DNA of 64,000 bases from Centroscyllium fabricii (taxonomy: Eukaryota), in the NCBI GenBank assembly GCA_051313645.2, contig JBNRSN020000003.1, positions 435,302,001-435,366,000 on the forward strand. Reading direction: 5' to 3'. The notes below the pieces were generated by a model. The model was not told the DNA's origin. It made no database searches and saw only the letters and a program-made list of their open reading frames with translations. Positions 4,093 through 64,000 of this stretch are shown in pieces (the stretch's first letter is position 1; every line of letters begins with the position of its first letter). The translations under genes and the position numbers were made by a program.

Positions 4093-4961
4093 GGGGGGAA
4101 TTTTAGGAGGTCCCTGAGTGCGGGTTTCTGGTGGGCCCGTTTCAAAAATTCCAATCCGGCGGGCGGGAAGGTACCCCGCCGGATCCCCGCCCATTTGGGA
4201 TTTTTGTCGGGCGGGTTTTCCCGCCCCGCATTTCTTCCGCCGGAGGGGATACAGATTGAGGTCATTGAGGGCCCTTAATTGGATGGCTAATCCTATTTTA
4301 AGTGCCCTCAGCTATTTTAGCCCTCTTCACACCCAAAACCCGCCTGTTGAAAACCTGCCGTGAAAAAGGTGGTGGGAATCCAGGCGGCTGGGTGTCTGCC
4401 ACCTTCAAGGCATGGGCACAGCACCCACACAGCAGCTTGCTAGCCTCCACCATACTGGAGGTGCAGCTGCCACCCAAGGGTGAGAAACTTCAGAGCCCAA
4501 AACCTTGAAATCGCTCACCTTCATATCGCTCCTATTTAACAGACATCGCGCTGCAGCGCTGTGTCTGTGAGCCCAACTGTCAATCACCTAGGGGATCAGT
4601 TTCTGTTTACATTGAAACCACAAACAAACATGACTCACTTCAACTGTTTGTTTTGTGGTTTCAAGTGTTTCTTTCAAAGTCTGACTCACCCGGCTATGTA
4701 AACATAGGAACAAAGGCAACACTTCAGATCTGTTAATCAAGCTTAGTGAGTTCTTACTACTCAGGCCCAACTCAAACTGTGAATGTGAAGGGCTTTGCTC
4801 CCGCCAATTAGTGTGTATTGGGAGCCCGACAGTTCGGCGGGGATTTAATTGGCCACTTGAGCCAAAATCGCTCCGATCTCCCAGGTCCTTGGGCGGGCGG
4901 GACAGAAGACTGACCCACCCAAAACCCGCCAACTTCCCACAGCTTTTTAAAAATTCCCCTC
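4093..4961. mobile_element. Non-autonomous PIF/Harbinger element, family X copy A
   Basis: TIR GGGGGGAATTTT / AAAATTCCCCTC with 3-bp TSD TAT. Collinear with the copies at 13784 and 62460. Confidence 0.85.
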
Positions 4962-12090: not shown

Positions 12091-12123
<33 letters not shown>

Positions 12124-13439: not shown

Positions 13440-14766
13440 AAAGACTTCCATTTATACAGCGCTTGTCATAACCTCGGGATGTCCAATGTGCTTTACAGCC
13501 TACTTTTGAAATGCAGTCACTTTTGTAATGTAGGAAATGTGGCAGCCAATTTGCCACAAACAGCAATGTGAAAATGACCAATCATTTTTTTTAGTGATGT
13601 TGATTGAGGGATAAATATTGGCCGGGACACCGGGGATAACTCTCCTGCTCTTCTTCGAAATAGTGCCATGGGATTTTTAACGTCCACCTGAGAGCGCAGG
13701 CAAGGCCTCGGTTTGACGTTTCATCCGAAAGACGGCACCTCTGACAGTGCAGCACTCCCTCAATACTGCACTGAAGTACCATAGGGGGGGATTTTCGGAG
13801 GGCCGTGAGGGTGGGTTTCCGGCAGGGGGTAAAATCGCAATTCCGGCGGGCAGGAAGCCACCCCGCCGGATCCCCGCCCATTTGCAATTTTCCTCAGGCG
13901 GGTTTTGCCGCCCCGAATGTTTCCCGCCGGCGGGGATGCAGAATGAGCTCGTTGAGGGCCCTTAATTGGATGGGTAATCTTATTTTAAGGGCTCTCAGCT
14001 ATTTTAGCCCTCTTCCCACCCAAACCCACCTGGTGGGAACTCCGCCGGTGAAAGGCGGTGGGCACCCAGTCGGCTGAGTGTCTGCCACCTTCAAGGCATG
14101 GGCACAGCACCCACACAGCAGCTTGCTAGCCCCCACCATGCTGGAGGTGCAGCTGCCGCCCAAGGGTGGTAAACTTCAGGGCCCCAAAACATAGAAATCA
14201 CTCACCTTTAAATCCCTGCTATTCATATAGAGATCGGCATGCTGCGCTGTCTGTGAGCCAAGCTGTCAATCGCCCAGGGGATCAGTTTCTGCTTACATTC
14301 CATTGAAACCACAAACAAACAGTGAGTGAGTTCAACTGTTTGTTTTGTGGTTTTAGTGTTCTCTTTCATAATGTGACTCACAAAGGCTATGTCAACATGG
14401 AAACAAAGGAACCACTTGAGCACTGTCAATCACGCTTCGTGGTTTCTTACTACTCAGACTATTCAGGCCTGTCAATCAACAGCCCGCCCCACTCAAACTG
14501 TGAATGAAAAGGGCTGAGTTCCCACCCAATAGTGGAAGCCCAGCAGACCAGTGGGGATTTAATTGGCCACTTGAGCCAAAATCGTTTGGGCCTCCCAGGT
14601 CCTTGGGCGGGCGGGACAGAAAGCTGACCCGCCCAAAACCCGACAGCTTCCCACACCTTTTTAAAAATTCCCCCCCATAGATTTTTTATGCTCAAGTCTC
14701 TGGAGTGGGACTTGAACCCACAATCTTCTGACTCAGAGGCGAGTGTACTACCTACTGAACCACGGC
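13440..14766 (-). mobile_element. SacSINE1/Deu-domain-like tRNA SINE, split by Harbinger copy B
   Basis: 13440-13783 and 14677-14766 together are the reverse complement of the SINE at 21576-22050. Confidence 0.85.
13784..14676. mobile_element. Non-autonomous PIF/Harbinger element, family X copy B
   Basis: G7ATTTT / AAAATTC7 TIRs with TSD ATA. The clean interruption of a SINE defines the borders. Confidence 0.9.
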
Positions 14767-17360: not shown

Positions 17361-17794
17361 AACACACCCACCCCAGGGCTGCTCGGCATCTCTTTAGCAG
17401 TGGGCTACAAAATAGTACTGGCAAAGTCTCAGTAGAATTGCTGCCCTTTTACTGAGACAGTCTGATCTGGAAAGCTTGAAGGAAATAATTATACACCTTA
17501 CAACAACCACCAAAATGGGGCTGGGGGGGAAACGGACATTTTGTTTCATTTACTGATTGAATCAATTACTGATACAGGTATTTAGGACCTAGTAACAAAT
17601 GCTTTTTTCCCCTCAGTTGAAGAGAAAGTTTTAGTAAATATGAAAGATGATGTGAGACCCGTAATTGCTGCAAAATAATAACCCTTCCCAGCCTAAATGA
17701 AATTAGGGTAAAAAAAATCCAAGTTGTTTTATTCAAAACAAAATGTTCTCTGTATTCCTAGGCTACCCATTTTCAAGATACTGTAGCTTTCAAA

Positions 17795-17998
17795 TGTAAG
17801 AGGTCTCACAACACCAGGTTATAGTCCTACAGTTTTATTTGAAACCACAAGCTTTCGGTGCGTTACTCCTTCACCTAATGAAGGAGCAGCGCTCCGAAAG
17901 CTTGTGATTTCAAATAAAACTGTTGGGACTATAACCTGGTGTTGTGTGACTTCTTACATTTGTCCACCCCAGTCCAACACCGGCACCTACACATCATG
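17795..17998 (+). mobile_element. Penelope-like element end with an inverted 5' copy (short foldback); duplicate at 28490-28693
   Basis: TGAAGGAGCAGCGCTCCGAAAGCTTG core and AATAAA. TSD TAGCTTTCAAA at 17784-17794 and 17999-18009. Confidence 0.82.
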
Positions 17999-20900: not shown

Positions 20901-21575
20901 GTAATTTGGTTTGTGAACAGATCACCTACCCTCTTGGCCAGATAATGGTATGTTTCTGACTTCATTGCTGTTGATGAATTCCCTGCAACTGCTGAATTAT
21001 ATGTGAATCATGGAGTCTGTAACAGGATCGAGTAGGAGCTGTGCCCAATCTAGTTGTTGCTCATAAACAGAGCACATCAGACAACAGCCAGTCCAAATAG
21101 AATCAGACTTCTCTCTCTCGAAATTTTATGTCAATTGCCCATTCGATATTGAGCTTGGTTTCATAAAGTAACAGGTTAACAAATCAATGGTGTTCTTATA
21201 TGGTGAAATCTGGCCCACAAGATCATGTGTATAAGCGCCTCCTCTAATTTACAATTCATTTCAAAATATTTCTGAAAGATAGAGCAGCACATCAATCCCT
21301 CTTCAATATTTAAGGGGCATAAAAACCATGAATAACAGTGCAATTCATGCACAATATTTTACACTGTTCAAGAGGATAGGTTATTCATACACCTGGTCAA
21401 TTGAGGTCAACTCTTGTAACTAATCCAAGTTCCAAGATAAACTTTAACACAATCTAGCACTGCGGCAAATAAGATTCAATCTGAAATTTTAAGTTGGAGG
21501 GACACCTACTATTTTCAAAATCCAAATGTTATAAAGAATTATGATTAACTTTCTTCTTGTTTTATTCCACCCTTG

Positions 21576-22050
21576 AGTGTTTCAGCTGTGGCTCAGAGGG
21601 TAGCACACTTGTCTCGGAGTCAGAAGATTGTGGGTTCAAGTCCCACTCCAGGGACATGAGCACATAAAGCTAGGCTGACACTCCCAGTGCAGTGCTGAGG
21701 GAGTGCTGCACTGTCAGAGGTGCCGTCTTTCGGATGAGACATTAAACCGAGGCCCCGTCTGCGCTCTCAAGTGGACGTAAAAGATCCCTTGGCACTATTT
21801 CAAAAAAGAGCAGGGGAGTTATCCCCGGTGTCCCAGACAATATTTACCCCTCAATCAACATAACAAAAACAGATGGAATTTATCACATTGCAGTTTGTGT
21901 GCGCAAATTGGCTACCGCGTTTCCCACATTACAACAGTGACTACACTCCAAAAAAGTACTTCATTGGCTGTGAAGCGCTTTGAGACTTTTGGTGGTCATG
22001 AAAGGCGCTTTACTTTATAAATGTAATTCTATCTTTCTTTCTTTCTTTCA
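21576..22050 (+). mobile_element. SacSINE1/Deu-domain-like tRNA SINE, full length; duplicate at 32271-32745
   Basis: A box TGGCTCAGAGGG, B box GGTTCAAGTCC, Deu-like core (gagtgctgcactgtcagaggtgccgtctttcggatgagac) and L2-like tail (gaaaggcgct...tataaatg). Confidence 0.88.
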
Positions 22051-24993
22051 ACAGCAAACACCGAATTGGTAACATCACGGGGAAGGGGTTCTGGCTTGAA
22101 GGTATTGATGGCTTGTGTGGTAGTTCAACTCCATTGTATTGTCAGGCTCAGAAACAAGCTAGCTGAGATTGCAATGGTCATTAGTCATAATTCTTTGCAA
22201 AAAGTTTGCTAAAAAAAATGGTTGCAATAGTGAGCTACCCTCTAAATAACAGCATTAACTGGCACAGTCGGTCACAAAAAAGGTCAAACTTTTGAAAATC
22301 AAGGTGTGGTAGAAGATAGAATACGGGTTTATGTCTACAACTCTCCACAGTAAGTTCTTGACCAAAGCCATACAGCAAAGGGAGGTGCAGAACAGAGACA
22401 AGGTGCTCACTCTCCTGACCATTGGGACAGGAATTAACCATGGTTTGCATCACTATGGTCTGCTCTGGTTTCTCTTCGGATAGCAGGAAAAGCATCAACA
22501 GAGGCTTGGCTAGAAAACTGTGTGCAACACGGAGCAGGATAGTAGATACATTTCTGGACATAATAATTTGCATTTTTCCCCCTTCTCTAGGCTTCCCTTA
22601 CCCATAATTTGACAATGAGGACAGTCAAGTGATCAGTTCACAGTCTTATGTCAATATAGCTATGGACTGGTCACTAAGAGATGTGTGAAAGTAGCTATGG
22701 TACATTAGCTGCAAATTTCCCCTTCCTGCAAGGTAATAAATGGCTTTTACTCCCTGCTTCCAATGATAACCAATGCCAGGAATTTGTGTATAGAAACACT
22801 GGTGCCAACCATGGCCTTACCACGTCATTGCACAATGTGTTAAAATGGGACCCAAGCAAGTTTCTTACTGTTCCCAATCAGAGACTAGAAAATCAAATAA
22901 ATCAAAAAGAGCTCCAATATTATGCCTTGAAAAATAGCTTTCAGCTGAAATGCCATGCTGCTATGTTATATCTGCAGGTACAGTTCCACTGTGTAATTTG
23001 TCACGATAAATAGGTTTTTTTCTTCTGAGACTCTCGCTTCCCCATCTCAATCTGTTGACATTTTTGACACTATGCCAATTGCCGTAAGTTGCACAGTTAT
23101 AAAAACTGCAGCATACATGTTCAGTTTAGAAACAGAGTGGCATCATTTGTTTGTCTAAGGAAGTCAGGGAAAAACAAGGTACACAAGGGGGAAAAGCAGT
23201 TTTAGCAAACACTGTATATATAATAAGTCACGTGGCAGTATAATGAGTCAGGGACTAAGCAGGAGCATTACATCTTATTCAAAGAGCCCAAATTTTTGAA
23301 AGTTAATCTGGATCCTTTAGGCCATGCTGTGATTTCCATTAGATTATTCACTGTTTTACAGATTGTAGCAGGATGCTACAAGAGAATTACGTACTACGCA
23401 ACAATTTTTAAGTAGTGCTTAAAAAAACCACACAGAATGGCAATAAAGCCTAGAAGGAAAAATCATTTTCTTTATCGATTCGCTGGATGAGTTTGATGTT
23501 CCAATCTCTGTCATTTTGCGAATGACACATAATTACTATCAGTGAACTTCACTGGTAACTGTAGGGTTAATGCTAGCTACCATGTACTGAGCCAAGAAAA
23601 ACGAATTAAAGAGAACTGATGTGAACATATTGAACTGAAACATTAGACTTACTTTATATATATTTTATTTAAACACAATAACCAGTCTCTTCCTGCATAT
23701 AGAAAGTTTACTTAAATTATTTTTTTCTCTTTACCAAACATTGAAAGAAAAATTCATATCGTCTCCTATTTGAATCTGACCCCAACTACTTCTTAAAATG
23801 AAAATATACCGCTGCTCGATCAGCTTTCCTTGATTGCTCAGTGTTCTGCTTGCTGTAGTTCAAAAAAAACAAATCGTTTTGTACACTGTATCACTGCGTT
23901 CCATTTAGCCCTCACTGTAGGAGGCCAGACTGCAATGTCAGCCTCAGAGAATCTGAAGAAAGTCTACCCAGAAAGGGGTGAAGAGAAGAAATTGGAGGCA
24001 AATGGGCCGTGAACTAAACCATCATGTAGAGCTATCGATGCTGATAACATTTATTCAATCGCCTGATATTGTTGAGCTTGGCCTGAATGAAGTCTTTCAG
24101 GGTGCTGCATGAAGTTAAAGCAAGTAAATTTCTATCTTTTTCTGCATTAGCTGCCTCATTGCCCTTCAATCGGCCTCACAAAAGCAGAAAATGGTTATAC
24201 CATCTGCTTTCAATTCTCTGTAGCCAAATGTTCTTGTTGCGCCACTGCACACATTCAGAACAGTTCCCCTCCCCACCCCAGCAGCCCCCCCCCCCCTCCC
24301 CGCCACCATCACCACCAAGTATTAGCCTGCGGGCATGCCTAGAGCCCCGCTGCAAAGTAAATAGGCCTGATCAAAGAAGTTTGTGTTCATCAAAATAAAA
24401 CATTTTCTTTTTAAACTCTGATTTTAAGACCGATTACAATTGGGTTGATAAAAATATAAACAATTTAATTCCACCCCCTCACCCCAATAAGTGTTACAAA
24501 AATCACTAGACCTCGAAGCAACACAGACAAGGGCAGCAAAAGCAGCAGTTTCTTCAATTAAACAGGAACATAATTGTGTTAATTTGTACTTGTAGGACAT
24601 GTATGATTAGCTATTAATTAGAACTCTTCCAAATGTATAACTGTCAATTGCTTTTAATCTAAAAAAAATCCAAGCCAGTATGAATTAAAAAAACGATATT
24701 TACTGAAAGATCCCCAGGACTCAAGTTGCTGCTCTCTGGTAGTTACCAACAGTTCCCTATCACTAGGAAAGAAATAGCTTTGATTAGACCAGGAGTTATA
24801 GAAAAGTTAAAAAATCATAATTATATGTATTTAGGGTGTGCCATGAAAGATTTCTTAAATTTTACAATTATTTCTAGCAGCACAAATTCAGACTACCTGT
24901 TGATCTCACACCAGGACTAATTAGAATTGAACTACTGCACAAGAAACTGTTTACCAATTTCCTGTTCCAGCTCGACCTAGCTTGTTTCATGTT

Positions 24994-25520
24994 GGGGTAG
25001 AAATTCTCTGCATTGCACCAGTTTTGGGGCATAAAACATACCAATTTAGCAATGTGCACCTGCACTGGTCCCACTGCTAAATATGTGGAGCTCCAGTTTT
25101 ACGTGACTCCTTGACTATGTAAATAAGGGCCTCAACACCTGTTGAGGACCCCTTTCAGAAACTTGTCTCCGATGAATGTGGCAGGCGTCAATGCTTGCCC
25201 CACTCAGGAATCTTCAGTGTTCCCAGTGGCCACCGGAAGGTAGGTTGTGAAATTCTACTAATTAAAAAACGTTCCTGTGGAGCCACGTTTGTCCCCCGTC
25301 CCACCCGTAGCCCGCTCCAACTCCCTCCCCCCCCCACCCCCAATCTCGGGATTTACCAGTCTTCGCTTGGGCGAGTAGCCTTTCGGAGCCGTGACCAGTG
25401 CGGGCAGCTTGCGCCAAATATACTGAGGAGGCCAGAGGTTCAGTTTCTTTCGATCTTTGGCCCTCTTGCTTCAGGCATGCACTGATTGTGCAGTTCTGAT
25501 TCTCGACTAATTTCTACCCC
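24994..25520. mobile_element. Old Harbinger-type MITE; duplicate at 35689-36215
   Basis: Perfect 12-bp TIR GGGGTAGAAATT / AATTTCTACCCC. The TSD is not preserved. Confidence 0.65.
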
Positions 25521-25880
25521 ACTGCACTAAATCCCACTTTCCTTCGGGCGATCAGGGCTAGGGAAGGCTGAAGGCTTATTTGAGGTGCCTGGGGGGAGCA
25601 CTCCAGCTCCTCCTGGCATACAAGGATTGCTGAGACAGCTACTTACCTTGGCAAGCCGACAGCTCCTGCCTCCATTTCAGTGCAGGGTTTCCCGACCTCT
25701 TGGAAACCCATGCAGCAGTAGTAAATTTCAAATTGAGCTCCCAATTGTGCTGTGGGAGCCAGATTTAAATGTTAATTAAGCGTCCCACCTCTCCATGGCG
25801 GGACACTCAGATGCCCCGATATCTGCCGCTATAATAATGATGGCTGGCGCTTGTGCAGCAGATTAGGGTCGTGTTCCGCA

Positions 25881-26125
25881 CTTTTCACTTTTCCAAAGAG
25901 TGGTAAGAATGTGGAACTCGCTACCATAAGGAGTAGTTGAGGCAAATAGCAGAGTTGCATTTTAAGGGGAAGCTGGATAAGCATGAGGGCGAAAGAAATA
26001 GAAGGATATGCAGATAGGGCTGGATGAAGAGAGGTGGGAGGAGCCTCGTGTGGAGCATAAACACTGGCATGGACTATTTGGGCTGAATGGCCTGCTTTTG
26101 TGCTGTAAACTTTATGTTACTCTAT
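25881..26125 (+). mobile_element. CR1 3' end; duplicate at 36576-36820
   Basis: agagtggtaagaatgtggaactcgctacca...ttgggctgaatggcctg is the CR1 C-terminus plus tail stem. Confidence 0.8.
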
Positions 26126-26485
26126 GTTCACTTGTTGGGCACTTAATTCAAAGAAAAACAACATGTTTCAATTTACACCCCTTGATGTAATAATGATTGT
26201 GAAATGGTCAAAACAGTCATCAATGTCACTTCATGAGAATCAATCTCCCATTTGTACTACCATGACAGGGCAGCCACATCATCCAGCGCTGGGGTGGGGG
26301 GACAGAGGAAGTCATCAGTTTTCCCATCCCAGATCCCTGCCCAGAGATTGTCACAGTAAAATGTATGGCCATCAAGTGAGAATAGGATTGGGTTCAATGA
26401 TGATGCCATTTCCCCTTCCCCTCCTGAGGAAAGTCTTGCCTCCTTCCTAGGATTATATTTCCATGGGCCATCACATTCTTGTACC

Positions 26486-26685: not shown

Positions 26686-29600
26686 CACACAAGGGTAGGC
26701 ACTTGGGTGTTTTAGCCAATGTACATGTAAAGCTTCTTTTAATGTGGTGTCAAACAGTGAAAACTTTATTTTCAACACTTTGTATTCTTGGACAGATTTG
26801 TGTGCACCTTTGGAAGTGGCTTAGTGAGTTGCAGTGAATGGTGAGACATAACGGTACCCCCGCAATGGTGATGAGTGTGAAAGGAATGGCATTGTAGGGA
26901 TGCTTTATGCTGTGGGTGTGGGGTAGTGCCAACCTGACGCATCATGTGGCAGCCAGGGTGTACAGCATCAAAGTGAAGTAAATCTGGCTTGGCAAGGCCA
27001 TCCCTGGCCTCCCAGGCAGCAATGGGGTCAGGTGCTGATGCCCTGTGGCCTGTGCAGCATCAGGTGATTGTGGAGAAGGTTGGTGTTATTGTTGGTGCTG
27101 CTGGTGTGCCGGTGTTGGGGCCGATCGTGGTGGGATTCTGAGGGCCAAGGTGAGAGAGTTTCAAGCACACCTATGCTGATGGAATAGATGGTAGGTGAAG
27201 TAGAGATGACAGAAGCGATCTGTCAATGGTGGGAGAGGTAATGAGGTCAGACTGGATGGAGACTTGTGTAAAGACTTGCAGCATCCTGAATCTGTAGTGG
27301 AAATGCAGTTTAGAGAAGCGAGTGGTTACGGGAACATATCTCAATCAGCTGGGAGCTTGGACTTGACATTTGAAGCCGTCAACTAATCAACTGGTTCAAT
27401 GGCCACTGACCTCCCGCCTCCGCATCACAGACGAGGTCTCGGCACAGCGGGAAACGGTGGGCAACCTGTCAAAAGCTGTGAAAAAAATTGATAAGTGGCT
27501 GTAAATAAGCCACTAATAATTTTAATTGCCTCTCCCGCCGCTGTGTGTTGGGTCTGCTCAGTGCCGACAGTCCCGACATTTGGTCAAGGCGTGTGGCTGC
27601 AGGTTCACAGCGGGGTCCTGACCCGCTGGGGAAAAAAAAAAACCGTTCCCACCCAAACCGCCACTAACCCCCGCAAAATCCAGCCCAACGAGATGAAAAT
27701 CTCAGCTTTCCCGTTGTGGAGAAAGAGTAAGCAGAGTCTGCAAGTTATCCCGTAGAGAAAAAGGCAAAATCCAGAAGCTGGGGTGGGAAAAAGGAGAGTG
27801 AGAGAGAGGGATGGAAAAGAGAGAGAGATGGAAATGAGAAAGAAAAGGATGGAAATGAAAGAGAGAGAGAGAAAAATAAATGAGGGGGGGAGAAAGAAAG
27901 AGAGAGAGAGGGAAGAGAGAGCGAGAGAAAGAAATGAGAGAGGAGGGGGAAGAGAGAGAAAGAAAGAAATGACGGGGGGGGGGGGGGGGGGGAGAATGAG
28001 AGAGGGAGGAACAGAAAGGGAGAGAAAAAAAAAGAACTGGAAAAAAAAGTGAAGAAACACACCCACCCCAGGGCTGCTCGGCATCTCTTTAGCAGTGGGC
28101 TACAAAATAGTACTGGCAAAGTCTCAGTAGAATTGCTGCCCTTTTACTGAGACAGTCTGATCTGGAAAGCTTGAAGGAAATAATTATACACCTTACAACA
28201 ACCACCAAAATGGGGCTGGGGGGGAAACGGACATTTTGTTTCATTTACTGATTGAATCAATTACTGATACAGGTATTTAGGACCTAGTAACAAATGCTTT
28301 TTTCCCCTCAGTTGAAGAGAAAGTTTTAGTAAATATGAAAGATGATGTGAGACCCGTAATTGCTGCAAAATAATAACCCTTCCCAGCCTAAATGAAATTA
28401 GGGTAAAAAAAATCCAAGTTGTTTTATTCAAAACAAAATGTTCTCTGTATTCCTAGGCTACCCATTTTCAAGATACTGTAGCTTTCAAATGTAAGAGGTC
28501 TCACAACACCAGGTTATAGTCCTACAGTTTTATTTGAAACCACAAGCTTTCGGTGCGTTACTCCTTCACCTAATGAAGGAGCAGCGCTCCGAAAGCTTGT
28601 GATTTCAAATAAAACTGTTGGGACTATAACCTGGTGTTGTGTGACTTCTTACATTTGTCCACCCCAGTCCAACACCGGCACCTACACATCATGTAGCTTT
28701 CAAAATAGAGATCAAAATTAAAAAATATTCCAGCTGTGTACTCTGGCTGTTGAGTTCTGCTTTTCATCCAGAACTTTGGTAGCAGGAACCCAGATATGAA
28801 CTGTAAAAGGCAGTGGTCTAATAAGAGCAATCCACGCATTGATTAAACTGAGCTCCACTACAATTTTAGCTCCATCGGTTATGGTTCTTTTTAAATTGAA
28901 ACACAAGCATGCTTCTTTAAGTGTCGGAGGGGAAATAATTGTTGCAATAATTCGGACGTTACTGCAACTTGAAAACAATACTGTCGTATCCCTAGCGATT
29001 AGTACCATTAGGGTTAAACAAAAATTCCTAGTACTGTCTGCTTTAAAAACAATTAAAATAATTTTTTTTGAAAAACTTAGATCATCAACGACATGCAAAT
29101 GTTGGTTCAGAGAACTTTTTCTTTCCCTGTAATTGTACTGGTACCTGTAGTACAAAAATAAAAAGCCTGTCTCAAGCTGAAAATATCATATCTGCTCCCA
29201 ATGAATATATAGGTTTTTAAAATCGTAAAATAATTTGTTTCTTTACAACTGGTAACCTTGTGCCATAGTTAAAAATCATGCCTTTAATTCCCCATAAGTT
29301 GATTTCATCTCATCCTTTGACACGTTCTCAGCTGGAGTTAGAGTAGTCTTAGAGGAACAAGTCAAGCAAGAAGCAAAGCCTGCAGTTGATATAAAATGTG
29401 AGTTGATTTGGTATTGAATGAAAACCCATGCAGATCTATGACCTTGGCAGATGTCTGACCACCACACTTTATTTTTAAAAATGGGCACTTTGTGTGACTG
29501 TGATAGGACAGTTTAAGATGGAGCCATTTAGAGGACGATTCTGTGTCAATAGAATGCTTTATTTAAGGTACTGGCATTAATCACAGCATGGGGGATGGTC

Positions 29601-32600
29601 CATCTTTAAAAAAAACTCTAATAGCCTGGCTAGATGGGAAGAATCCCCATTATAAATTGTGTCAAACATTTGCAGAAAACCTTAAATGTCTTCTCATTAG
29701 CAACAGTGCAAATGAAATGAACGAGGGATAAGCAAAGCAACACAGTAACGGGAGGTAATCAGCGCGAGAGCAATTTATTTTGGGAATTTGTTTAACAGCC
29801 AAAAATTGTCTTCACCGTAGATCAAAAGTTCGTATTTATAAACAAAATGACTAAAATGTTTAAAATGGATCAACCAAAAAAAAGCAGCTTTCCTCAACAA
29901 AATCTCAGTTTGCTCAAGTAGTTTACTCAGCAAAGGGAGTCAGAGGGAAAAAAATCAAGGCATTTACTTTTGACTTTATAGTAAATATGGTTCTGTAAAG
30001 TTGATCTTATTAAAAAAAGGTTTTGAAAAAGATCTCTAAAACAACCCTTCAGCCACCTGAATCAATTTTTGCTACTATGTAGCAGGGTGCTTTACAAAAC
30101 AGTCAGGAATCTCCTGTGCTGTTATCAGGAAATTATTCCTAGGAAACACAAAATTCCTATAAAAAGGCACAGAGACTTCTACAAGCATTAAAACAGTTGC
30201 CATACAGATGTACCTTAGTGTTAAAAAGGGCAAGTCTTAAAATTAAAGGAAAATAACCAGCTTGGAATGGGTTAGCAGAGTCACAATCATCAATTCATTC
30301 TCATACTGTGAGGGAAAGAACAGTTTTAATGCAATGTCATGGGACAACCAGTTTGGAGAATCACTACTTTTCTTTAAAAAATAAACCACCTAATTTGTCT
30401 CTACACAGGAAATTTTTACTTGGGATGAACCATAACACTGATTTTATCCATCCTCTCATGGCAAGTAAAACAATTTGGTCCAGTTCACCACATTAGATTC
30501 CTCATCTTTCCTTTGCCACACCATCGATAATTCTCTCGTCTACATTAATGAGGGAAGTAATTTGTCTGTATTCACCACAATTGTTATCGCGTCTCGGTTG
30601 TGTAATGCAAACAACCATAGTTGGCCACACCACCTTAGGTTTGTGTCACATAACAATAGGGCACATTAACTTGGAGGGGCTGGCTTTCAAGTTGTGGAAA
30701 TATGATAGATCAACAAGAAATATATAAAATTCCACTATTTGGCAAGCCAATGGATCAAAGGAATTTTGCTTGGGTTGGTGTTGAGACCGTCACAAATTTG
30801 CAGAACAATGGTGATGAATGTTGGATCACCAAATTACTAATCTCACCACTGCTGAGTGGAGGCCAGATGTTTCCTTATAAGTGAAAGAGCGAGGAGGAAA
30901 CACACTTCAAGTTAAATGTCATGTTTTTTTATGTACATTACTTAATTTTCTTAATTAATGGTAGCTGCAGTCTTGATCTGAACAAAATCCAGCTCAGATT
31001 TTGTCATCTTTAGAAAAGATGACTTTAGCAAAATCAGTGTCTATAGGGCAACTCTCCCTCATAAAATAAGAAATGATATGGCATGAATGGATATACATAA
31101 GATTATGGCATTCAACTTCGCTTCCCCCACCACATCCTTACAAATGTATATGATCTATCTACAAAAGTTTTTTGTTTGCGAGCACTGCCCAATGGCAGCC
31201 AGACACTACCCCACAGGAAGAGGCATTAAAACTGATTATTGTTCTCCTTAGAAGCTAGAATAGACCTATTGCACAAATGCATTCCCTTGCCTTTCTTTGC
31301 TGAAGCTCATAAGAGGGAACAGAATGGGGGGGGGGGGGGGCGGGGGGAAACAAAAGCCATGGTGAGCTCCAAATTACAGTTTTAAAATGTAAGTTAGACA
31401 GGAGGTAAAAGAAGCCATATGGGAAGAAAACCATTTTTATTGTCTTCCATTCTGAAGTTTCTTTAAATTGAGGCTGCAAACTTTAGGTTTGTAATTGTTT
31501 TAGAAATTTCGGAGGTGAGTGATGACAAATCAGGTAGTGAATCGTCCACACACAGTTCTGAGACAGTGGTTAACAGCTGGTACAAAAGTGCCATTGTAAT
31601 TTGGTTTGTGAACAGATCACCTACCCTCTTGGCCAGATAATGGTATGTTTCTGACTTCATTGCTGTTGATGAATTCCCTGCAACTGCTGAATTATATGTG
31701 AATCATGGAGTCTGTAACAGGATCGAGTAGGAGCTGTGCCCAATCTAGTTGTTGCTCATAAACAGAGCACATCAGACAACAGCCAGTCCAAATAGAATCA
31801 GACTTCTCTCTCTCGAAATTTTATGTCAATTGCCCATTCGATATTGAGCTTGGTTTCATAAAGTAACAGGTTAACAAATCAATGGTGTTCTTATATGGTG
31901 AAATCTGGCCCACAAGATCATGTGTATAAGCGCCTCCTCTAATTTACAATTCATTTCAAAATATTTCTGAAAGATAGAGCAGCACATCAATCCCTCTTCA
32001 ATATTTAAGGGGCATAAAAACCATGAATAACAGTGCAATTCATGCACAATATTTTACACTGTTCAAGAGGATAGGTTATTCATACACCTGGTCAATTGAG
32101 GTCAACTCTTGTAACTAATCCAAGTTCCAAGATAAACTTTAACACAATCTAGCACTGCGGCAAATAAGATTCAATCTGAAATTTTAAGTTGGAGGGACAC
32201 CTACTATTTTCAAAATCCAAATGTTATAAAGAATTATGATTAACTTTCTTCTTGTTTTATTCCACCCTTGAGTGTTTCAGCTGTGGCTCAGAGGGTAGCA
32301 CACTTGTCTCGGAGTCAGAAGATTGTGGGTTCAAGTCCCACTCCAGGGACATGAGCACATAAAGCTAGGCTGACACTCCCAGTGCAGTGCTGAGGGAGTG
32401 CTGCACTGTCAGAGGTGCCGTCTTTCGGATGAGACATTAAACCGAGGCCCCGTCTGCGCTCTCAAGTGGACGTAAAAGATCCCTTGGCACTATTTCAAAA
32501 AAGAGCAGGGGAGTTATCCCCGGTGTCCCAGACAATATTTACCCCTCAATCAACATAACAAAAACAGATGGAATTTATCACATTGCAGTTTGTGTGCGCA

Positions 32601-35600
32601 AATTGGCTACCGCGTTTCCCACATTACAACAGTGACTACACTCCAAAAAAGTACTTCATTGGCTGTGAAGCGCTTTGAGACTTTTGGTGGTCATGAAAGG
32701 CGCTTTACTTTATAAATGTAATTCTATCTTTCTTTCTTTCTTTCAACAGCAAACACCGAATTGGTAACATCACGGGGAAGGGGTTCTGGCTTGAAGGTAT
32801 TGATGGCTTGTGTGGTAGTTCAACTCCATTGTATTGTCAGGCTCAGAAACAAGCTAGCTGAGATTGCAATGGTCATTAGTCATAATTCTTTGCAAAAAGT
32901 TTGCTAAAAAAAATGGTTGCAATAGTGAGCTACCCTCTAAATAACAGCATTAACTGGCACAGTCGGTCACAAAAAAGGTCAAACTTTTGAAAATCAAGGT
33001 GTGGTAGAAGATAGAATACGGGTTTATGTCTACAACTCTCCACAGTAAGTTCTTGACCAAAGCCATACAGCAAAGGGAGGTGCAGAACAGAGACAAGGTG
33101 CTCACTCTCCTGACCATTGGGACAGGAATTAACCATGGTTTGCATCACTATGGTCTGCTCTGGTTTCTCTTCGGATAGCAGGAAAAGCATCAACAGAGGC
33201 TTGGCTAGAAAACTGTGTGCAACACGGAGCAGGATAGTAGATACATTTCTGGACATAATAATTTGCATTTTTCCCCCTTCTCTAGGCTTCCCTTACCCAT
33301 AATTTGACAATGAGGACAGTCAAGTGATCAGTTCACAGTCTTATGTCAATATAGCTATGGACTGGTCACTAAGAGATGTGTGAAAGTAGCTATGGTACAT
33401 TAGCTGCAAATTTCCCCTTCCTGCAAGGTAATAAATGGCTTTTACTCCCTGCTTCCAATGATAACCAATGCCAGGAATTTGTGTATAGAAACACTGGTGC
33501 CAACCATGGCCTTACCACGTCATTGCACAATGTGTTAAAATGGGACCCAAGCAAGTTTCTTACTGTTCCCAATCAGAGACTAGAAAATCAAATAAATCAA
33601 AAAGAGCTCCAATATTATGCCTTGAAAAATAGCTTTCAGCTGAAATGCCATGCTGCTATGTTATATCTGCAGGTACAGTTCCACTGTGTAATTTGTCACG
33701 ATAAATAGGTTTTTTTCTTCTGAGACTCTCGCTTCCCCATCTCAATCTGTTGACATTTTTGACACTATGCCAATTGCCGTAAGTTGCACAGTTATAAAAA
33801 CTGCAGCATACATGTTCAGTTTAGAAACAGAGTGGCATCATTTGTTTGTCTAAGGAAGTCAGGGAAAAACAAGGTACACAAGGGGGAAAAGCAGTTTTAG
33901 CAAACACTGTATATATAATAAGTCACGTGGCAGTATAATGAGTCAGGGACTAAGCAGGAGCATTACATCTTATTCAAAGAGCCCAAATTTTTGAAAGTTA
34001 ATCTGGATCCTTTAGGCCATGCTGTGATTTCCATTAGATTATTCACTGTTTTACAGATTGTAGCAGGATGCTACAAGAGAATTACGTACTACGCAACAAT
34101 TTTTAAGTAGTGCTTAAAAAAACCACACAGAATGGCAATAAAGCCTAGAAGGAAAAATCATTTTCTTTATCGATTCGCTGGATGAGTTTGATGTTCCAAT
34201 CTCTGTCATTTTGCGAATGACACATAATTACTATCAGTGAACTTCACTGGTAACTGTAGGGTTAATGCTAGCTACCATGTACTGAGCCAAGAAAAACGAA
34301 TTAAAGAGAACTGATGTGAACATATTGAACTGAAACATTAGACTTACTTTATATATATTTTATTTAAACACAATAACCAGTCTCTTCCTGCATATAGAAA
34401 GTTTACTTAAATTATTTTTTTCTCTTTACCAAACATTGAAAGAAAAATTCATATCGTCTCCTATTTGAATCTGACCCCAACTACTTCTTAAAATGAAAAT
34501 ATACCGCTGCTCGATCAGCTTTCCTTGATTGCTCAGTGTTCTGCTTGCTGTAGTTCAAAAAAAACAAATCGTTTTGTACACTGTATCACTGCGTTCCATT
34601 TAGCCCTCACTGTAGGAGGCCAGACTGCAATGTCAGCCTCAGAGAATCTGAAGAAAGTCTACCCAGAAAGGGGTGAAGAGAAGAAATTGGAGGCAAATGG
34701 GCCGTGAACTAAACCATCATGTAGAGCTATCGATGCTGATAACATTTATTCAATCGCCTGATATTGTTGAGCTTGGCCTGAATGAAGTCTTTCAGGGTGC
34801 TGCATGAAGTTAAAGCAAGTAAATTTCTATCTTTTTCTGCATTAGCTGCCTCATTGCCCTTCAATCGGCCTCACAAAAGCAGAAAATGGTTATACCATCT
34901 GCTTTCAATTCTCTGTAGCCAAATGTTCTTGTTGCGCCACTGCACACATTCAGAACAGTTCCCCTCCCCACCCCAGCAGCCCCCCCCCCCCTCCCCGCCA
35001 CCATCACCACCAAGTATTAGCCTGCGGGCATGCCTAGAGCCCCGCTGCAAAGTAAATAGGCCTGATCAAAGAAGTTTGTGTTCATCAAAATAAAACATTT
35101 TCTTTTTAAACTCTGATTTTAAGACCGATTACAATTGGGTTGATAAAAATATAAACAATTTAATTCCACCCCCTCACCCCAATAAGTGTTACAAAAATCA
35201 CTAGACCTCGAAGCAACACAGACAAGGGCAGCAAAAGCAGCAGTTTCTTCAATTAAACAGGAACATAATTGTGTTAATTTGTACTTGTAGGACATGTATG
35301 ATTAGCTATTAATTAGAACTCTTCCAAATGTATAACTGTCAATTGCTTTTAATCTAAAAAAAATCCAAGCCAGTATGAATTAAAAAAACGATATTTACTG
35401 AAAGATCCCCAGGACTCAAGTTGCTGCTCTCTGGTAGTTACCAACAGTTCCCTATCACTAGGAAAGAAATAGCTTTGATTAGACCAGGAGTTATAGAAAA
35501 GTTAAAAAATCATAATTATATGTATTTAGGGTGTGCCATGAAAGATTTCTTAAATTTTACAATTATTTCTAGCAGCACAAATTCAGACTACCTGTTGATC

Positions 35601-37180
35601 TCACACCAGGACTAATTAGAATTGAACTACTGCACAAGAAACTGTTTACCAATTTCCTGTTCCAGCTCGACCTAGCTTGTTTCATGTTGGGGTAGAAATT
35701 CTCTGCATTGCACCAGTTTTGGGGCATAAAACATACCAATTTAGCAATGTGCACCTGCACTGGTCCCACTGCTAAATATGTGGAGCTCCAGTTTTACGTG
35801 ACTCCTTGACTATGTAAATAAGGGCCTCAACACCTGTTGAGGACCCCTTTCAGAAACTTGTCTCCGATGAATGTGGCAGGCGTCAATGCTTGCCCCACTC
35901 AGGAATCTTCAGTGTTCCCAGTGGCCACCGGAAGGTAGGTTGTGAAATTCTACTAATTAAAAAACGTTCCTGTGGAGCCACGTTTGTCCCCCGTCCCACC
36001 CGTAGCCCGCTCCAACTCCCTCCCCCCCCCACCCCCAATCTCGGGATTTACCAGTCTTCGCTTGGGCGAGTAGCCTTTCGGAGCCGTGACCAGTGCGGGC
36101 AGCTTGCGCCAAATATACTGAGGAGGCCAGAGGTTCAGTTTCTTTCGATCTTTGGCCCTCTTGCTTCAGGCATGCACTGATTGTGCAGTTCTGATTCTCG
36201 ACTAATTTCTACCCCACTGCACTAAATCCCACTTTCCTTCGGGCGATCAGGGCTAGGGAAGGCTGAAGGCTTATTTGAGGTGCCTGGGGGGAGCACTCCA
36301 GCTCCTCCTGGCATACAAGGATTGCTGAGACAGCTACTTACCTTGGCAAGCCGACAGCTCCTGCCTCCATTTCAGTGCAGGGTTTCCCGACCTCTTGGAA
36401 ACCCATGCAGCAGTAGTAAATTTCAAATTGAGCTCCCAATTGTGCTGTGGGAGCCAGATTTAAATGTTAATTAAGCGTCCCACCTCTCCATGGCGGGACA
36501 CTCAGATGCCCCGATATCTGCCGCTATAATAATGATGGCTGGCGCTTGTGCAGCAGATTAGGGTCGTGTTCCGCACTTTTCACTTTTCCAAAGAGTGGTA
36601 AGAATGTGGAACTCGCTACCATAAGGAGTAGTTGAGGCAAATAGCAGAGTTGCATTTTAAGGGGAAGCTGGATAAGCATGAGGGCGAAAGAAATAGAAGG
36701 ATATGCAGATAGGGCTGGATGAAGAGAGGTGGGAGGAGCCTCGTGTGGAGCATAAACACTGGCATGGACTATTTGGGCTGAATGGCCTGCTTTTGTGCTG
36801 TAAACTTTATGTTACTCTATGTTCACTTGTTGGGCACTTAATTCAAAGAAAAACAACATGTTTCAATTTACACCCCTTGATGTAATAATGATTGTGAAAT
36901 GGTCAAAACAGTCATCAATGTCACTTCATGAGAATCAATCTCCCATTTGTACTACCATGACAGGGCAGCCACATCATCCAGCGCTGGGGTGGGGGGACAG
37001 AGGAAGTCATCAGTTTTCCCATCCCAGATCCCTGCCCAGAGATTGTCACAGTAAAATGTATGGCCATCAAGTGAGAATAGGATTGGGTTCAATGATGATG
37101 CCATTTCCCCTTCCCCTCCTGAGGAAAGTCTTGCCTCCTTCCTAGGATTATATTTCCATGGGCCATCACATTCTTGTACC
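26686..37180 (+). repeat. Direct duplicate of 15991-26485 (10,495 bp, offset 10,695)
   Basis: Every ORF in the track recurs identically at +10695, and both copies abut the N gap. Confidence 0.97.
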
Positions 37181-47978: not shown

Positions 47979-48741
47979 GGGGGGGATTTCTGCGGGTCCA
48001 TGAGGGCAGCATTCTGGCGGGGCCTAAAAATCACAGAATGGGGGGGGGCCCGACCCACCCCCCGGCCGGCTTGTAAGTTTCGGGCGGCGTGTCCCACCGT
48101 TCCGAATCTTTCCTGCCCGCCACCAGCGGGGATGCTCCTTCAGGTAATTAAGGGCCCTTAATTGGACTGGATAATGCCATTTTAAGGGCCCTCACCTATT
48201 TTAAACCCTTTCCCACCCAAACCCCGCCATCCTGAAACCCCACTGATGAAACCCAGCGGGAGCACAGTGGCCTTGGTCACTTTCACCTTCAAGGCATTGA
48301 AGGACCTAGAGCAGAATGCTTTCCAGGCCTTCAACACCCTGGAGGTGTAAGCGACTCCCTTTTCTGAGGGCCATCTGTGGAGAAAAAAACTTAAGCAACT
48401 TACTTTGACAGATGGATTGAGAGACGGTCCCTAACTGTCAAAGATTTTCAGCGCGACCGTCCAACTGTCACTCAAACCACTTGGGCTTTGCGATTGGTTG
48501 CACTCCATTGTGATGTCACAGTGGAGTGTTTCCATGGCAACTGTCAACAAACAGCCCATACAACTGTCAGTCAAAGTCCTCGCTCCCAGCTGCAGCGCCT
48601 TGATTGCTCCCCGCACGTGGGGATTTAATTGATCAATTTAGGCAAATTTGCGTCGGGTTCCCAGGCCCTTGGGCAGACGGGACAGAAATCCGACCCGACC
48701 AATCCCCGCCAGGTTCCTGCACGTTCGGGAATATCGCCCCC
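47979..48741. mobile_element. Non-autonomous PIF/Harbinger element, family X copy C (diverged subfamily)
   Basis: G7ATTTC / GAATATCGCCCCC TIRs. Shares gggcccttaattgg, ttttaagggccctca and the right end with copies A, B and E. Confidence 0.85.
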
Positions 48742-53252: not shown

Positions 53253-54027
53253 GGGGGGGATTTTCATGTCCCCGTGAGGCGGGGTTTTCGACAGCCCGGC
53301 CGGCAAAATAGCGGAACCGGCAGGTCCCCCCCCACCCCCCGCCATATCCCCGCCGCTTTCTCATTTCCCCCGCCCAGATTCCCCGGCCCGAAACCTTCCC
53401 GCCGCCGGCCAGCGGGGATGGGTTGTCACCTCGTTAAGGGCCCTTAATTGGCATCTTTAATGCCATTTTATGGGCCCTCAGCCATTTTGCCCTGTTTCCC
53501 GCCTTAACCCCGTTACCTTAAACCCCGCTGGGTGAAACCCAGCAGGAGCACAGCGTTGGTTATAACTTTCTCCTTCAAGGTGCTGAAGGACATGCTGCCA
53601 AATGCTTGGCATGCCTCCAGCACCTTAGAGGAGTAAGTAACTCCGCTGTGGCTGCAGCAGCTGTGAGCAGAGACTGAGAAAACTCAGCTCTGAACATTTC
53701 CTCACAGCCGCTGCGAGCTGTCAAGAATTCTGAGCCCGCCCACCCACCTGTCAGTCACCAGCACTTGACCGTTCCCATTGTGATGTCACAGTGGAGTGCT
53801 TCCATGGGAACTGTCAACAACCAGTGCTGGAACTGTCAATCAAGCTGCTCGCAGCCCCGATGCAGCCCGACTCAATTGACCTAATTACCTCCCGCTGCCG
53901 CCGGTGTGGATTTAACAACCTAATTAAACTAAAATTGCGTGGCCTTCCCAGCTGTTTGGGCGGGTGGGACGGAGGCGGCCCAGACCAATCCCCGCCAGGT
54001 TCCCGCCCTTCCGGCGAAATCCCCCTC
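53253..54027. mobile_element. Non-autonomous PIF/Harbinger element, family X copy D (subfamily of C)
   Basis: G7ATTTTC / GAAATCCCCCTC TIRs with TSD ATA. Confidence 0.85.
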
Positions 54028-59845: not shown

Positions 59846-61671
59846 GATCATACTTTTGTGCAATATACATCAAGAATAAGATCTGTGTTATTTAACATAA
59901 TTACTGAAGATTTAAATTGTGATTAAAGTAATTTAATCTGCAGTGGAGAAAAATCATGCCACTCACTCTTCATTAGTCCTTCCCTTGTACAATTTCATGT
60001 TTTCCCACAAACCTTGTGTGCCCTCTTGTGACTCTCAGCTCTTATTGCAGACATAGTAACTTGGCCATTTTTTCCCCACAGCTACAGTGAAATGTCTCCC
60101 GTGTACATGGCTGCTGTGTAGTAACATATTTTTTGTTGTTGACTGTTTTTAATGTTTTAAAGAATAGTCTGTTAGATTTAACAATGCAACTTGATAACTT
60201 ACTCACTGTTCAATTAAATTCAATGGAAACTGACTGCTAAAATGTTTTCAATGGTTTTGTGCCATAAATAACTGGTAATTTAGGTTTGTGCCTACATTGT
60301 GTACATACCTCTACATGCACTGTAGTACTCCAAGTTTTGGAGGAAAGAGGGCCTTCCAATACATGTAATGAGAATAACATGGTAATTCTATTTATGGCAC
60401 ACAGTCTACCAGCTTGGGGGTGGTGGCAGGTCTGCAGGTATACTGCATTCTCAGTATGCATCACTGGAGCCAATTTAGAGCAATAAGAGTGCCAATTAAG
60501 GTAGGTCCTGGTGAAGGTAATATAGTTGACTTGGAGATATGCAGTTTCAATGCAATTTTGCTCGGCTACAAATGGTTCTATAACAGGATAAAAATTAGAT
60601 TTAAATCAGAGTAGAGACTGAAGTCACTCCCAAATATGGTCAGTAGATAAGGTTTCGATGGATTTAAGAATATTTTTGCAAGTGCTGATGACACAAGGGA
60701 TGAGGACAAACTACAATGCAGGCTACATACCCAAAACATCATGGGCTGTCTTCTCTCCCTACAGATGCTGACTGACTGCTCTGGAGTTCTGCTATGAGAG
60801 GTACTAGCTTAGAAAGGTTATTCAACCCAAGAGTGTGAAACCTAATTAACACACACTTGATGGTTAATCATGCTTGGTTTTAGGACTCTCTTTACAGCTA
60901 CTTACACAGTACTGCCAGCTTTTGTTGCATGGCTTCCGACCAGCTGTAAACCCCAAAGTAAGCTTGCCTGATTTGCTAAAGCTGGAACCTGGAGAGTCAC
61001 GGCTATATAAAAAGCTCTTCCTAGCCACCCGCTTTAGTGAATTGGGCAAGTTTACATTGAGGTTACCACTGTCTGCACAAGTCTTGCGCACCAGGAGCCA
61101 ACAGAACCAAATTGGTAATTAATCCAAAATAAAGGCAGCTTAAAGCTACAATATAGCTCCCTTGCATTCAGGCTCAGTAATTCTTTTGAATTAGGACATT
61201 AAACTGTAACATCCAAAATCTTAGCTTAACCAATATTCAACAATTAACTGAAATTGAAAGAGCAAGAAGGGCTATTGGTTGACATTTTTACCATTATTTG
61301 ATTTTAAAAGTAGAAAGAGGAATTTCTGATCAATTAAATTCATTGTTTTATTTAACAATCAGTAATAGAAAGTGTATGGTGACTAGAACCCCTATAATTA
61401 GATTGGAGTTCAATTTTTTCACCCTTGGGACAAAATTTTCCCGGAGGTGCGGGCAATTGTCGGGTCAGGTTTCTGACCCGAATATTAAAGTTGCTGGGCG
61501 ACCCACGCAATTTTGGCTTAAGTGCCCAATTAATTCCCCGTGTGTGGGAAGCCTTCCCAATCAACTATTTCCAGTCAGAAAGTCGCACAATATGACGTCA
61601 TCGTGCCTGGTGCTTTTAATGCAGACAGCAAGCCTGCCTTACTCTTCAGGCTTCTGCAAACGTCCAGGAGG

Positions 61672-64000
61672 ATGTCACAGCAACATGAAGCTGCTGCGGC
61701 CAGCAGGAGGGCCCGAACCTCACCCAAATTCGACGAGGCATCATTACAGGCATTACTGGATGGGGCTAGGGCCCACAGGGAGGTTCTCTTCCTCCCTCTC
61801 AGACCAAGGCTGCTTGGCTGCAGGTGTCTGAGGGGGTTAACTCCGTGGGCCTCACACCATGGTCATGGATCCAGTGCAGGAAGAGATTCCATGACCTACA
61901 TCAGACTGCAAAAGTAAGTATGAAGTTTCTATCACCCTCAATCTGATTCCCATCGCCTTTCCTCACCAGCACTTAGCTTCACCAATCCCTTCCTCCACAT
62001 CCCACTTCACACTCACATCGATGCACCCTTACCCATTCCCTCTCTCTCTATGCTCACATTCACAGAACTATTTGACCATGCAGCCCTCACACTCTGATGC
62101 TTTGACCACAACTGACAGCACACAGGGAGGGCCCTTGGTCTTGCAACCTCACTCCATCTTTGTCTCCCTCCAACTATCTATACTATTCACACTCTGCTCA
62201 CACTCCTTCATTCTCACTCAACCTCCACTTGTCTCCCTCATTGCAGGAAAAGAGAGCTAACAACAACCGCGCGAGAGCAAGGACAGGAGGAGGCTCACCC
62301 TCCATCGCGCACCTCACCACCTGGGAGGAAGGAGTCCTTCGGACAGTCGGAGATGCAGAGGCGGCAGAAGTGGGAGAAAGAGAGACAGGGTATCCTCGCA
62401 AGCTGGTGACAGAATCGTTTTACATCTATCTCATTGCCATCGCATGACTCGCAGATAATGGGGCGATTTTCCTGGGTCCGAGTGCGGTTTTCCGGCGGGG
62501 CCTAAAAATCGCAATTCCGGCAGGCGGGAACCCACCCCGCTGGATCCCCGCTGATTTGCCATTTTCCGCGGGTGGGTTTTCCCGCCCCGAATGTTGCCCG
62601 CCGGCTGCGATGCTCAATGAGCTCGTTGAGGGCCCTTAATTGCCTGGGAAATCCTATTTTAAGGGCCTTCAGCTATTTTTGCCCTCTTCCCGCCCAAAAC
62701 CCGCCTGGTGGGAACACCGATTGAAAGCTGGCGGGCACCCAATTGGCTGGGTGGCTGCCACCTTCAAGGCATGGGTACAGCAGCCACACAGCAGCTTGCT
62801 AGCCTCCACCATGCTGGAGGTGCAGCTGGCACCCAAGGGTGCAAAACTTCAGTGCCCAAAGAACTTGAAATCACTTTACTGCATATGCGTCCCAGCCATT
62901 CAAAGACATCGTGCTGCGATCTGTGTCTGTGAAGCAAGCTGCCAATCACCCAGGGGATCAGTTTCTGTTTACATTCCAATGAAACCACAAACAAACAGCC
63001 AGTCCACTTGAAGCTGTCACTGTTAGATTTGTGGTTTCAAGTGTTGCATTGGGATTGTGATATCACCAATGCCTCTTTCAACATTGAAAGAAAGCAACCA
63101 CTTCACAACTGTCAATCAGGCTTTGTAGTTTCTGAGCGACTGAAACTCTTCAGGCCTGTCAATCAAAGGCCCGCCGGTTATTCAGAATCTGAAAGGACGC
63201 CCCAAGCTTCCTGACTGAAAAGGGTGTATTCAAAACGGCGCTGACCGACGGGGATTTAATTGGCCACTTGAGACAAAATCGCGCGGGCCTCCCAGGTCCT
63301 TGGGCGGGCGGGACAGGAACCCGCCCCAACCAATCCCCGCCAGGTTCCCGCACCTCCAGGAAAATTCCCCCAATAGATTCTGAGGCTACATCATATGGAC
63401 TTATGATCATCTGCAAAATGCTATGTGCATGTAACCTTGCCATCACATCTCTCTTTCCTTTACTCCCCCACAGGACCATCAAGAGGACCCGTCCCCATTG
63501 TGGAGGAGGAAGAGGCGGAGGAGACCGACTCCTCAGAGGAAGCTCCTACCTCCGAGGGCGCAGCATCAGCAGTATTCAGCACACCCCGCACCAGCGCAGA
63601 CACCCACACCTCGGTGGGACCGTCGGGACATAGAGTAGTGTTGTCACCTGGTGTATCACAGCTCACAAGTGAGCCCTAGCAGATTGTGGAGACAGGGACA
63701 GCACTGGAGAGTCCTAGTCGGAGGGCGCAGGACTCTCCCAGCTCAGCTCAGCTGCATGTCGGCCCTCTGCCTCTGGGTCCATCCGAAAGATCCGAGGTGA
63801 TGGAACTCCATGCACAGATGCAGGAGTCTCTGGCAGGTTTGGTCTTCAGGGTCGCTGCGAGTGCGGAGTGAATGGAGGAGTCCGTAGCGACCATGAGTAG
63901 AGCCTTTGTGGAGTCATTAGCGCATCAACACGGAAAGGATGGCAACCTCCGTGGAAAGGCTGGCTGCAGCCATGGAGGCAGTAAGTTGCCGGAGTGAGGA
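61672..64000 (+). pseudogene. Harbinger Myb/SANT-like DNA-binding protein gene, 3 exons (about 61672-61913, 62247-62405, 63474-end), frameshifted
   Basis: Exon 1 reads SPKFDEASLQALLDGARAHREVLF / QTKAAWLQVSEGVNSVGLTPWSWIQCRKRFHDLHQTAK|gtaagt. Exon 2 reads ttgcag|EKRANNNRARARTGGG. Exon 3 is acidic then coiled-coil-like, with stops. Confidence 0.82.
62460..63371. mobile_element. Non-autonomous PIF/Harbinger element, family X copy E, nested in intron 2 of the Myb gene
   Basis: TIR GGGGCGATTTT / AAAATTCCCCC with TSD AAT. Confidence 0.88.

Follow-up and report, generated by a model that had tools for sequence, protein, structure and literature searches.

A long hairpin in one branch of a non-autonomous Harbinger family, a candidate minus-strand RNA structure next to a promoter-like core and a predicted splice site

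The 64,000-nucleotide stretch of Centroscyllium fabricii DNA analysed here (the window) contains five copies, A to E, of an interspersed element termed family X. An initial annotation described in all five a 64-nt core forming a length-invariant hairpin with compensatory substitutions, maintained probably as minus-strand RNA with the geometry of a Drosha substrate. In the present study, we asked how far this hairpin extends through the family, and whether it was shaped as an RNA structure or by the way in which palindromes mutate in DNA.

Family X and its copies in the window

All five cores were found (Table 1), and the assignment of family X to Harbinger was borne out. The elements are 760-930 bp long with G-rich terminal inverted repeats (TIRs), and each core lies about 315 nt in from an end. 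An identical 3-bp target site duplication (TSD) flanks 29 of the 76 elements with both TIRs located, compared with a mean of 5.8 and a maximum of 15 in 1000 shuffled pairings. It is perfect in four of the five window copies; in copy C the flanking triplets are AAA and ATA, with one mismatch. Identity to autonomous Harbinger elements of about 5.7 kb is 68-79%, the left 300 nt matching their transposase-side end and the right 130-165 nt their Myb-side end. These elements carry convergent genes, namely a transposase (PF13359, E 2e-12) and a Myb-like open reading frame on the opposite strand. In PMC9179366, Harbinger elements are described as having TIRs, a 3-bp TSD, and a partner with a DDE transposase and a Myb-like open reading frame; since family X has TIRs, a TSD, and ends in common with autonomous loci, its elements are Harbinger by that definition. 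They are non-autonomous (median 811 bp), and their open frame has no Pfam match and thus no coding capacity.

Table 1. Features of family X in the window (positions count from the first letter of the window)
Feature	Position	Strand	Remarks
Copy A	4093..4961		TSD TAT; core 4400-4463; no significant long hairpin
Copy B	13784..14676		TSD ATA; core 14086-14149; no significant long hairpin
Copy C, non-autonomous Harbinger	47979..48741		G-rich TIRs; core 48284-48347; ends homologous to autonomous loci
Copy C, left end	47979..48275	plus	70-78% identical to transposase-side end of autonomous elements; contains TIR and co-varying inverted repeat 48148-48192
Copy C, CNNC motif (CCAC)	48267..48270	minus	17 nt past predicted 3p cut
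Copy C, long hairpin	48276..48355	minus	about 34 pairs; A.A mismatch at stem position 8 and C.A mismatch at 14, both invariant
Copy C, predicted 3p product	48287..48308	minus	more conserved arm; 13/11 cut
Copy C, predicted 5p product	48321..48342	minus	would result if Drosha cuts 13 nt from base
Copy C, predicted 5' splice site	48398..48406	minus	AAA/GTAAGT in copy C, AAG/GTAAGT in consensus; 54-56 nt from the core of the hairpin
Copy C, promoter-like core	48492..48541		CCAAT box, palindrome centred on CRE-like TGATGTCA, RFX X-box-like motif
Copy C, right end	48617..48741	minus	homologous to Myb-side end of autonomous elements
Copy D	53253..54027		TSD ATA; core 53570-53633; long hairpin 53562-53641; splice donor lost in D subfamily
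Copy E	62460..63371		TSD AAT; core 62759-62822; no significant long hairpin

An autonomous-type Harbinger begins at 61430 (window 61430-64000) with its Myb-like gene, into which copy E has inserted. Beyond the window, the transposase of the same element is disrupted by a LINE whose 5' part consists of units of about 190 bp in tandem. Elsewhere in the window, 10,495 bases are letter-identical across a 200-N gap (15991-26485 and 26686-37180), probably an assembly duplication, and a 5S rRNA match on the minus strand (12049-12162, 58.7 bits) is probably the head of a 5S-derived SINE.

Distribution and evolution of the long hairpin

The 64-nt pattern gave 32,918 exact matches in the 7.2-Gb genome and its reversed control 4. 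A 63-nt form gave 13,089 (control 2), which brings the two patterns together to 46,000 exact matches (controls 6), and the typical prefix of a 65-nt form matched 2,557 times. Because the 63- and 65-nt forms are abundant, the constant length is an accident of the five window copies. Length invariance is therefore false, and it is also uninformative on structure: a subfamily named Z has the identical core length and lacks the hairpin.

Flanking bases do lengthen the stem beyond the core, to about 34 pairs in copy C. Window copy C folds at -50.2 kcal/mol on the minus strand (z -8.2) and at -40.5 on the plus strand (z -6.0); the corresponding values for copy D are -44.7 (z -7.7) and -41.8 (z -8.3), with no shuffle among 200 as good in either copy. 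Clustering of 204 distinct copies gave 20 consensuses from groups of at least 3, with singletons and pairs left out; consensus ties were set to N and treated as A for folding. All 12 consensuses of the branch to which C and D belong (the C/D branch) fold on the minus strand (z -5.9 to -9.5), in 9 of them better than on the plus strand by more than 2 kcal/mol and in 3 tied with it. RNAalifold of 13 real C/D copies gave -45.2 kcal/mol on the minus compared with -22.7 on the plus strand, with 94% of cells paired over the 34 pairs. The claim that A, B and E still fold did not hold. Their minus-strand z values are -2.2, -1.6 and -0.7, the best folds being two short hairpins; RNAalifold of 11 copies of this type did not find the long hairpin, and the 8 A/B/E consensuses range from -0.1 to -3.5, the latter attained only by the 65-nt type. 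Copies of this type make up 13 of the first 30 listed matches of the 64-nt pattern. A wider search added the subfamilies Y and Z (30 loci each), which keep the cassette described below, its splice donor and the length, and have no long hairpin (z -0.4 and -0.1). The long hairpin is thus real only in the C/D branch; it is optional, and sister branches were amplified without it. Because the tree is unrooted, loss outside C/D is possible as well as gain within it.

Two explanations of the C/D hairpin have to be weighed. The one that we favour, tentatively and at somewhat less than even probability, is that it is a selected minus-strand RNA structure resembling a pri-miRNA, which the Drosha-DGCR8 Microprocessor would cut. 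The other, a strong rival though somewhat less probable, is that the hairpin is a DNA-level by-product without RNA function. In master copies, template switching or palindrome repair would have extended and homogenised two short palindromes 42 bp apart, as in Y; alternatively, the hairpin would act as single-stranded DNA in transposition or gap repair. Each arm is a quasi-palindrome, and Y has in place of the hairpin two short palindromes, one of them perfect over 18 bp, as the DNA explanation would have it. The dispensability of the stem in three branches also suits this explanation, and under DNA energies, too, the minus strand is the better-folding one as single-stranded DNA. Stems of this kind are known to arise by template switching (PMC10710096). 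On the other hand, the changes in C/D favour the long stem at the expense of the local palindromes, which they destroy.

The three two-sided changes reported between C and D are present (core pairs 2/63, 14/51 and 23/43, in a shifted register), and for each of them an unpaired intermediate exists in an amplified subfamily, which speaks against the DNA explanation. Their number is not above chance: 6 of the 34 pairs changed on both sides, compared with a mean of 5.6 in shuffles, 290 of 500 of which gave as many. Percent paired and the covariation score were not reached by any of 500 shuffles, both values being inflated by the kinship of the copies. In addition, two other inverted repeats of the element co-vary across subfamilies, one of them with a 2-nt, DNA-like centre; since they do so too, covariation alone is not diagnostic of RNA, and their covariation without wobble pairs suits the DNA explanation.

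In the C/D stems, new wobble states give minus-strand G.U at five pairs (-7/72, -5/70, 7/58, 17/48 and 25/41) and plus-strand wobble at one (14/51), where it is transient; copy-private neutral decay in 97 copies splits 26:26 between the strands. The bias toward minus-strand G.U that had been reported is seen in direction; with so few independent events it is a tendency that is not significant alone. All 12 C/D consensuses retain the mismatches at stem positions 8 and 14, which counts against the DNA explanation.

Subfamily Y was compared with consensus 25 of the C/D branch. The two differ at 12 positions in 84 nt, none of them in the 17-nt top, and all 12 are in Watson-Crick pairs in 25 and unpaired in Y; subfamily 23 has 10 of the 12 states of consensus 25. 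Among the pairs of Y that are not Watson-Crick, 11 of 13 minus-strand mismatches and 1 of 4 minus-strand G.U pairs are Watson-Crick in 25 (Fisher p 0.05), and two of the spared G.U pairs sit between corrected sites. Stepwise selection on a minus-strand stem predicts this pattern, whereas a single template-switch tract would not be expected to spare G.U pairs inside the corrected stretch. However, 9 of the 12 differences are complement swaps, compared with 36% elsewhere (p 0.006), an excess that hints at palindrome-templated mutation. Of all differences between consensuses, C/G or A/T swaps make up 36%, transitions only 34% and the remaining transversions 30%, a spectrum that departs from ordinary neutral decay.

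Parsimony on a tree from the flanking blocks gave 0.37 changes per site in the stem, 0.71 in its top, 0.76 in the left 140 nt and 1.2, about three times the stem value, in the 50-nt spacer between stem and splice donor. The promoter-like core, at 0.16-0.28, is the most conserved part of the cassette. A lower stem divergence within subfamilies was set aside, because the copies had been chosen by their core pattern. The minus-strand preference and the slow change of the stem agree with the earlier proposal that the structure is maintained as minus-strand RNA, as far as the C/D branch is concerned; for the family as a whole the proposal does not stand.

The cassette and predicted processing signals

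Family X consists of autonomous Harbinger ends and, between them, a cassette of a promoter-like core, a minus-strand 5' splice site and the hairpin. Read on the minus strand, the core is followed by a short exon-like stretch, the 5' splice site, 45 nt, the hairpin and the left end. The core contains what we take to be a CCAAT box, a CRE-like octamer, an RFX X-box-like motif and several Pbx/Meis-like sites. Its motif has 17,384 exact matches in the genome, and the hairpin adjoins it in 27 of 30 fetched loci, the other 3 being broken by insertions. The donor AG/GTAAG is kept in 12 of the 20 consensuses, takes GT/GC variant forms in 2, is unclear in 1 and is lost in 5, namely four D-type subfamilies and subfamily 1; the D clade retains the hairpin. 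Elsewhere, including Y and Z, the donor persists inside the fast-changing spacer. The minus-strand donor and the promoter-like core are independent support for reading the element on the minus strand, and the conserved donor points the same way as the strand bias of the fold, which counts against the DNA explanation. Against an RNA reading stand the dispensability of the stem in Y, Z and A/B/E, the covariation of the other inverted repeats and the loss of the donor in D.

We also considered whether the cassette derives from the interior of an autonomous element. This was rejected, as BLAST of the cassette against 14 long autonomous loci, 30 transposase loci and 30 Myb loci gave no match. At 48375-48403 on the minus strand, C/D copies have a pyrimidine run ending in CACAG 27-29 nt past the donor (a normal intron needs to be longer); in most subfamilies it overlaps an E-box-like CAGCTG. 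The tree of left ends disagrees with that of the cassette: subfamilies swap ends and retain the cassette, and the swapped ends are sometimes nearly identical to those of an autonomous family (Y).

Long stems with unstructured flanks and an apical loop occur only in C/D, being absent in Y, Z and most A/B/E. The resemblance to a Drosha substrate thus survives for the C/D branch, is weak in A/B/E and is absent in Y and Z. According to PMC7668254 and PMC8865264, a pri-miRNA stem has about 35 bp, with an mGHG motif at stem positions 7-9; the positions of the basal UG and CNNC motifs were taken from PMC11100773. The 34 pairs of the C/D stem fit the length given in PMC7668254. Of the mGHG motif, the mismatch at 8 and the C-G pair at 9 are as expected and position 7 is U-A, not G (two of three); the position-8 mismatch is symmetric and so present on the plus strand too. 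The basal UG at -14, an optional motif, is absent from C/D (AG in 12 of 12 consensuses) and present in 7 of the 8 A/B/E consensuses. A CNNC motif is at 17 on the 3' side in 6 of the 12 C/D consensuses, at 15 in 4, and is absent in 2. Changes per site are 0.36 in the predicted 3p arm, 0.29 in its seed and 0.59 in the 5p arm, and there are three different 3p seeds among the 12 C/D consensuses.

Searches for known small RNAs gave no relative of the hairpin. Rfam has no match at the locus (best E 0.19, MIR9486, 18.8 of 100 bits). The arm motifs were not found in published shark small-RNA lists (supplements of PMC3789328 and PMC6048248), a weak test with short exact motifs in different species; the single match, to miR-133 in the supplement of PMC3789328, is by chance. 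Full-text searches of the literature with the arm motifs returned unrelated papers only.

Possible functions and known systems

A predicted promoter and a predicted splice signal lie just ahead of the hairpin. It is therefore probably transcribed into RNA, which the microRNA machinery may cut. Under the reading that we favour, the promoter-like core would fire a right-to-left transcript, the RNA would fold into the 34-pair stem 55 nt past the splice site, and the Microprocessor would cut the stem 13/11 nt from its base. Microprocessor cuts can end transcription. The most likely use of the stem would accordingly be in cis, with the cut ending the transcript before it could exit through the left end, and the promoter would keep the element open to transposase in the germline. 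Such a role is favoured over a microRNA with conserved targets, since the seeds change from subfamily to subfamily and the stem is lacking in three branches; the release of a working microRNA is possible and less supported.

A different origin, which we consider unlikely, is that the hairpin is a remodelled relic of a structured transposase 5' leader, read antisense, whose 5p product would repress the autonomous transposase mRNA in trans. For the predicted 5p products of the C-type subfamilies 18, 26, 20, 34 and 36, the best duplex on the plus strand of the 5.6-kb autonomous element is at one site in this leader (-25.5 to -32 kcal/mol, 0 of 60 shuffles each); these subfamilies are related and not independent, and the match was first seen by eye. 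The hairpin is also collinear with the leader, and pairwise similarity to the leader has p 0.005-0.05 for two of four leaders. However, a profile search detected no homology between hairpin and leader (E above 8), no perfect 7-mer seed site for the C-type 5p was found at the leader position, and the arms of D, Y and A/B/E pair much worse with it. Besides, the 5p arm is the faster-changing one, and a non-autonomous element needs the transposase. The match between 5p and leader may reflect shared descent, chance or targeting. As a separate observation, in one autonomous family (L123-L151) the 5' leader of the transposase, at about 520-590 nt from the left TIR, forms a hairpin of its own that favours the plus strand (-44 compared with -33 kcal/mol); the related L311 and L319 fold less clearly.

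The boldest version, which we think quite improbable, would make of family X a mobile microRNA gene with a germline promoter, a splice site and a stem built stepwise, present at about 30,000 loci, whose 5p would brake the partner transposase through its 5' leader. That the core is a protein-coding remnant whose length reflects a reading frame is very improbable: the 63- and 65-nt forms, which shift the frame, were amplified to thousands and largely refute it. In several consensuses an open minus frame does span the core, but it has no Pfam match, variable sites occur at each of the three codon positions, and the plus frame has a stop in common subfamilies.

If processed, and only then, the hairpin would work like two known microRNAs borne by DNA transposons. 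The miR820 hairpin of rice CACTA elements is processed through the plant DCL1 pathway and targets OsDRM2 (Nosaka et al. 2012, PMC3459959). The X hairpin is likewise of miRNA type and has been multiplied by the cut-and-paste DNA transposon that carries it; unlike miR820, it belongs to a vertebrate Harbinger derivative with tens of thousands of copies and is a candidate for processing. The hsa-mir-548 hairpins of Made1 MITEs (Piriyapongsa and Jordan 2007, PMC1784062) are also animal miRNA-like hairpins within a non-autonomous DNA transposon. However, their stem is made of the two TIRs and they need host transcription, whereas the X stem lies inside the element, 300 nt from the TIR, and is accompanied by a promoter-like core and a splice site that belong to the element. 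Monttinen et al. (2023, PMC10710096) described miRNA hairpins that arose de novo at single loci, with 35-bp stems formed from quasi-palindromes in one template-switch event; the X pattern differs in that it looks stepwise, spares G.U pairs and lies in a transposon master lineage. Vertebrate PIF/Harbinger elements are alike in TIRs, TSD and a DDE and Myb partner, and no internal cassette of promoter, splice site and hairpin is described in the available part of PMC9179366.

Mu killer of maize is a deleted transposon derivative with one long inverted duplication that gives siRNAs. Family X would share with it a hairpin RNA related to the 5' end of the autonomous element, the link to the transposase leader being marginal in X, and differs in that its stem is short and miRNA-sized. 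Our literature search found no description of family X or of a vertebrate Harbinger-borne miRNA; it did not cover Repbase, Dfam, miRBase and MirGeneDB, and because the repeat databases lay outside it, the element may have a Repbase or Dfam entry.

If the C/D hairpin is a Microprocessor substrate, the birth of a pri-miRNA can be read from fossil subfamilies, with no hairpin in Y, an intermediate in 23, a full one in 25-36 and further compensation in D. A gene-less DNA transposon would then have been selected for RNA structure although it moves without RNA. The family would also allow a direct test of whether miRNA stems originate de novo in single template switches or through selection in steps. 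It could, moreover, uncover a control of transposase encoded by transposons amid the tens of thousands of Harbinger copies in this 7-Gb genome. If the hairpin arose at the DNA level, it cautions against taking covariation in palindrome-rich MITEs as evidence of RNA structure.

A first look at the whole genome gave 72,583 candidate Harbinger transposase and 50,745 Myb-like loci, in several distinct families. Family X was also present as contigs in presumed RNA runs labelled as other organisms, two from one organism and two from another; no joint or loose end fell at the splice donor in the part of the contig alignments that was listed. One of these organisms has arm variants intermediate between the C and Y types, and the family is therefore probably shared between species. 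Copies of family X are frequently paired in opposite orientation, 1-2 kb apart, for example at 8011470 and 8012611, 10270782 and 10271850, and 24094208 and 24095325 of G000:C1.
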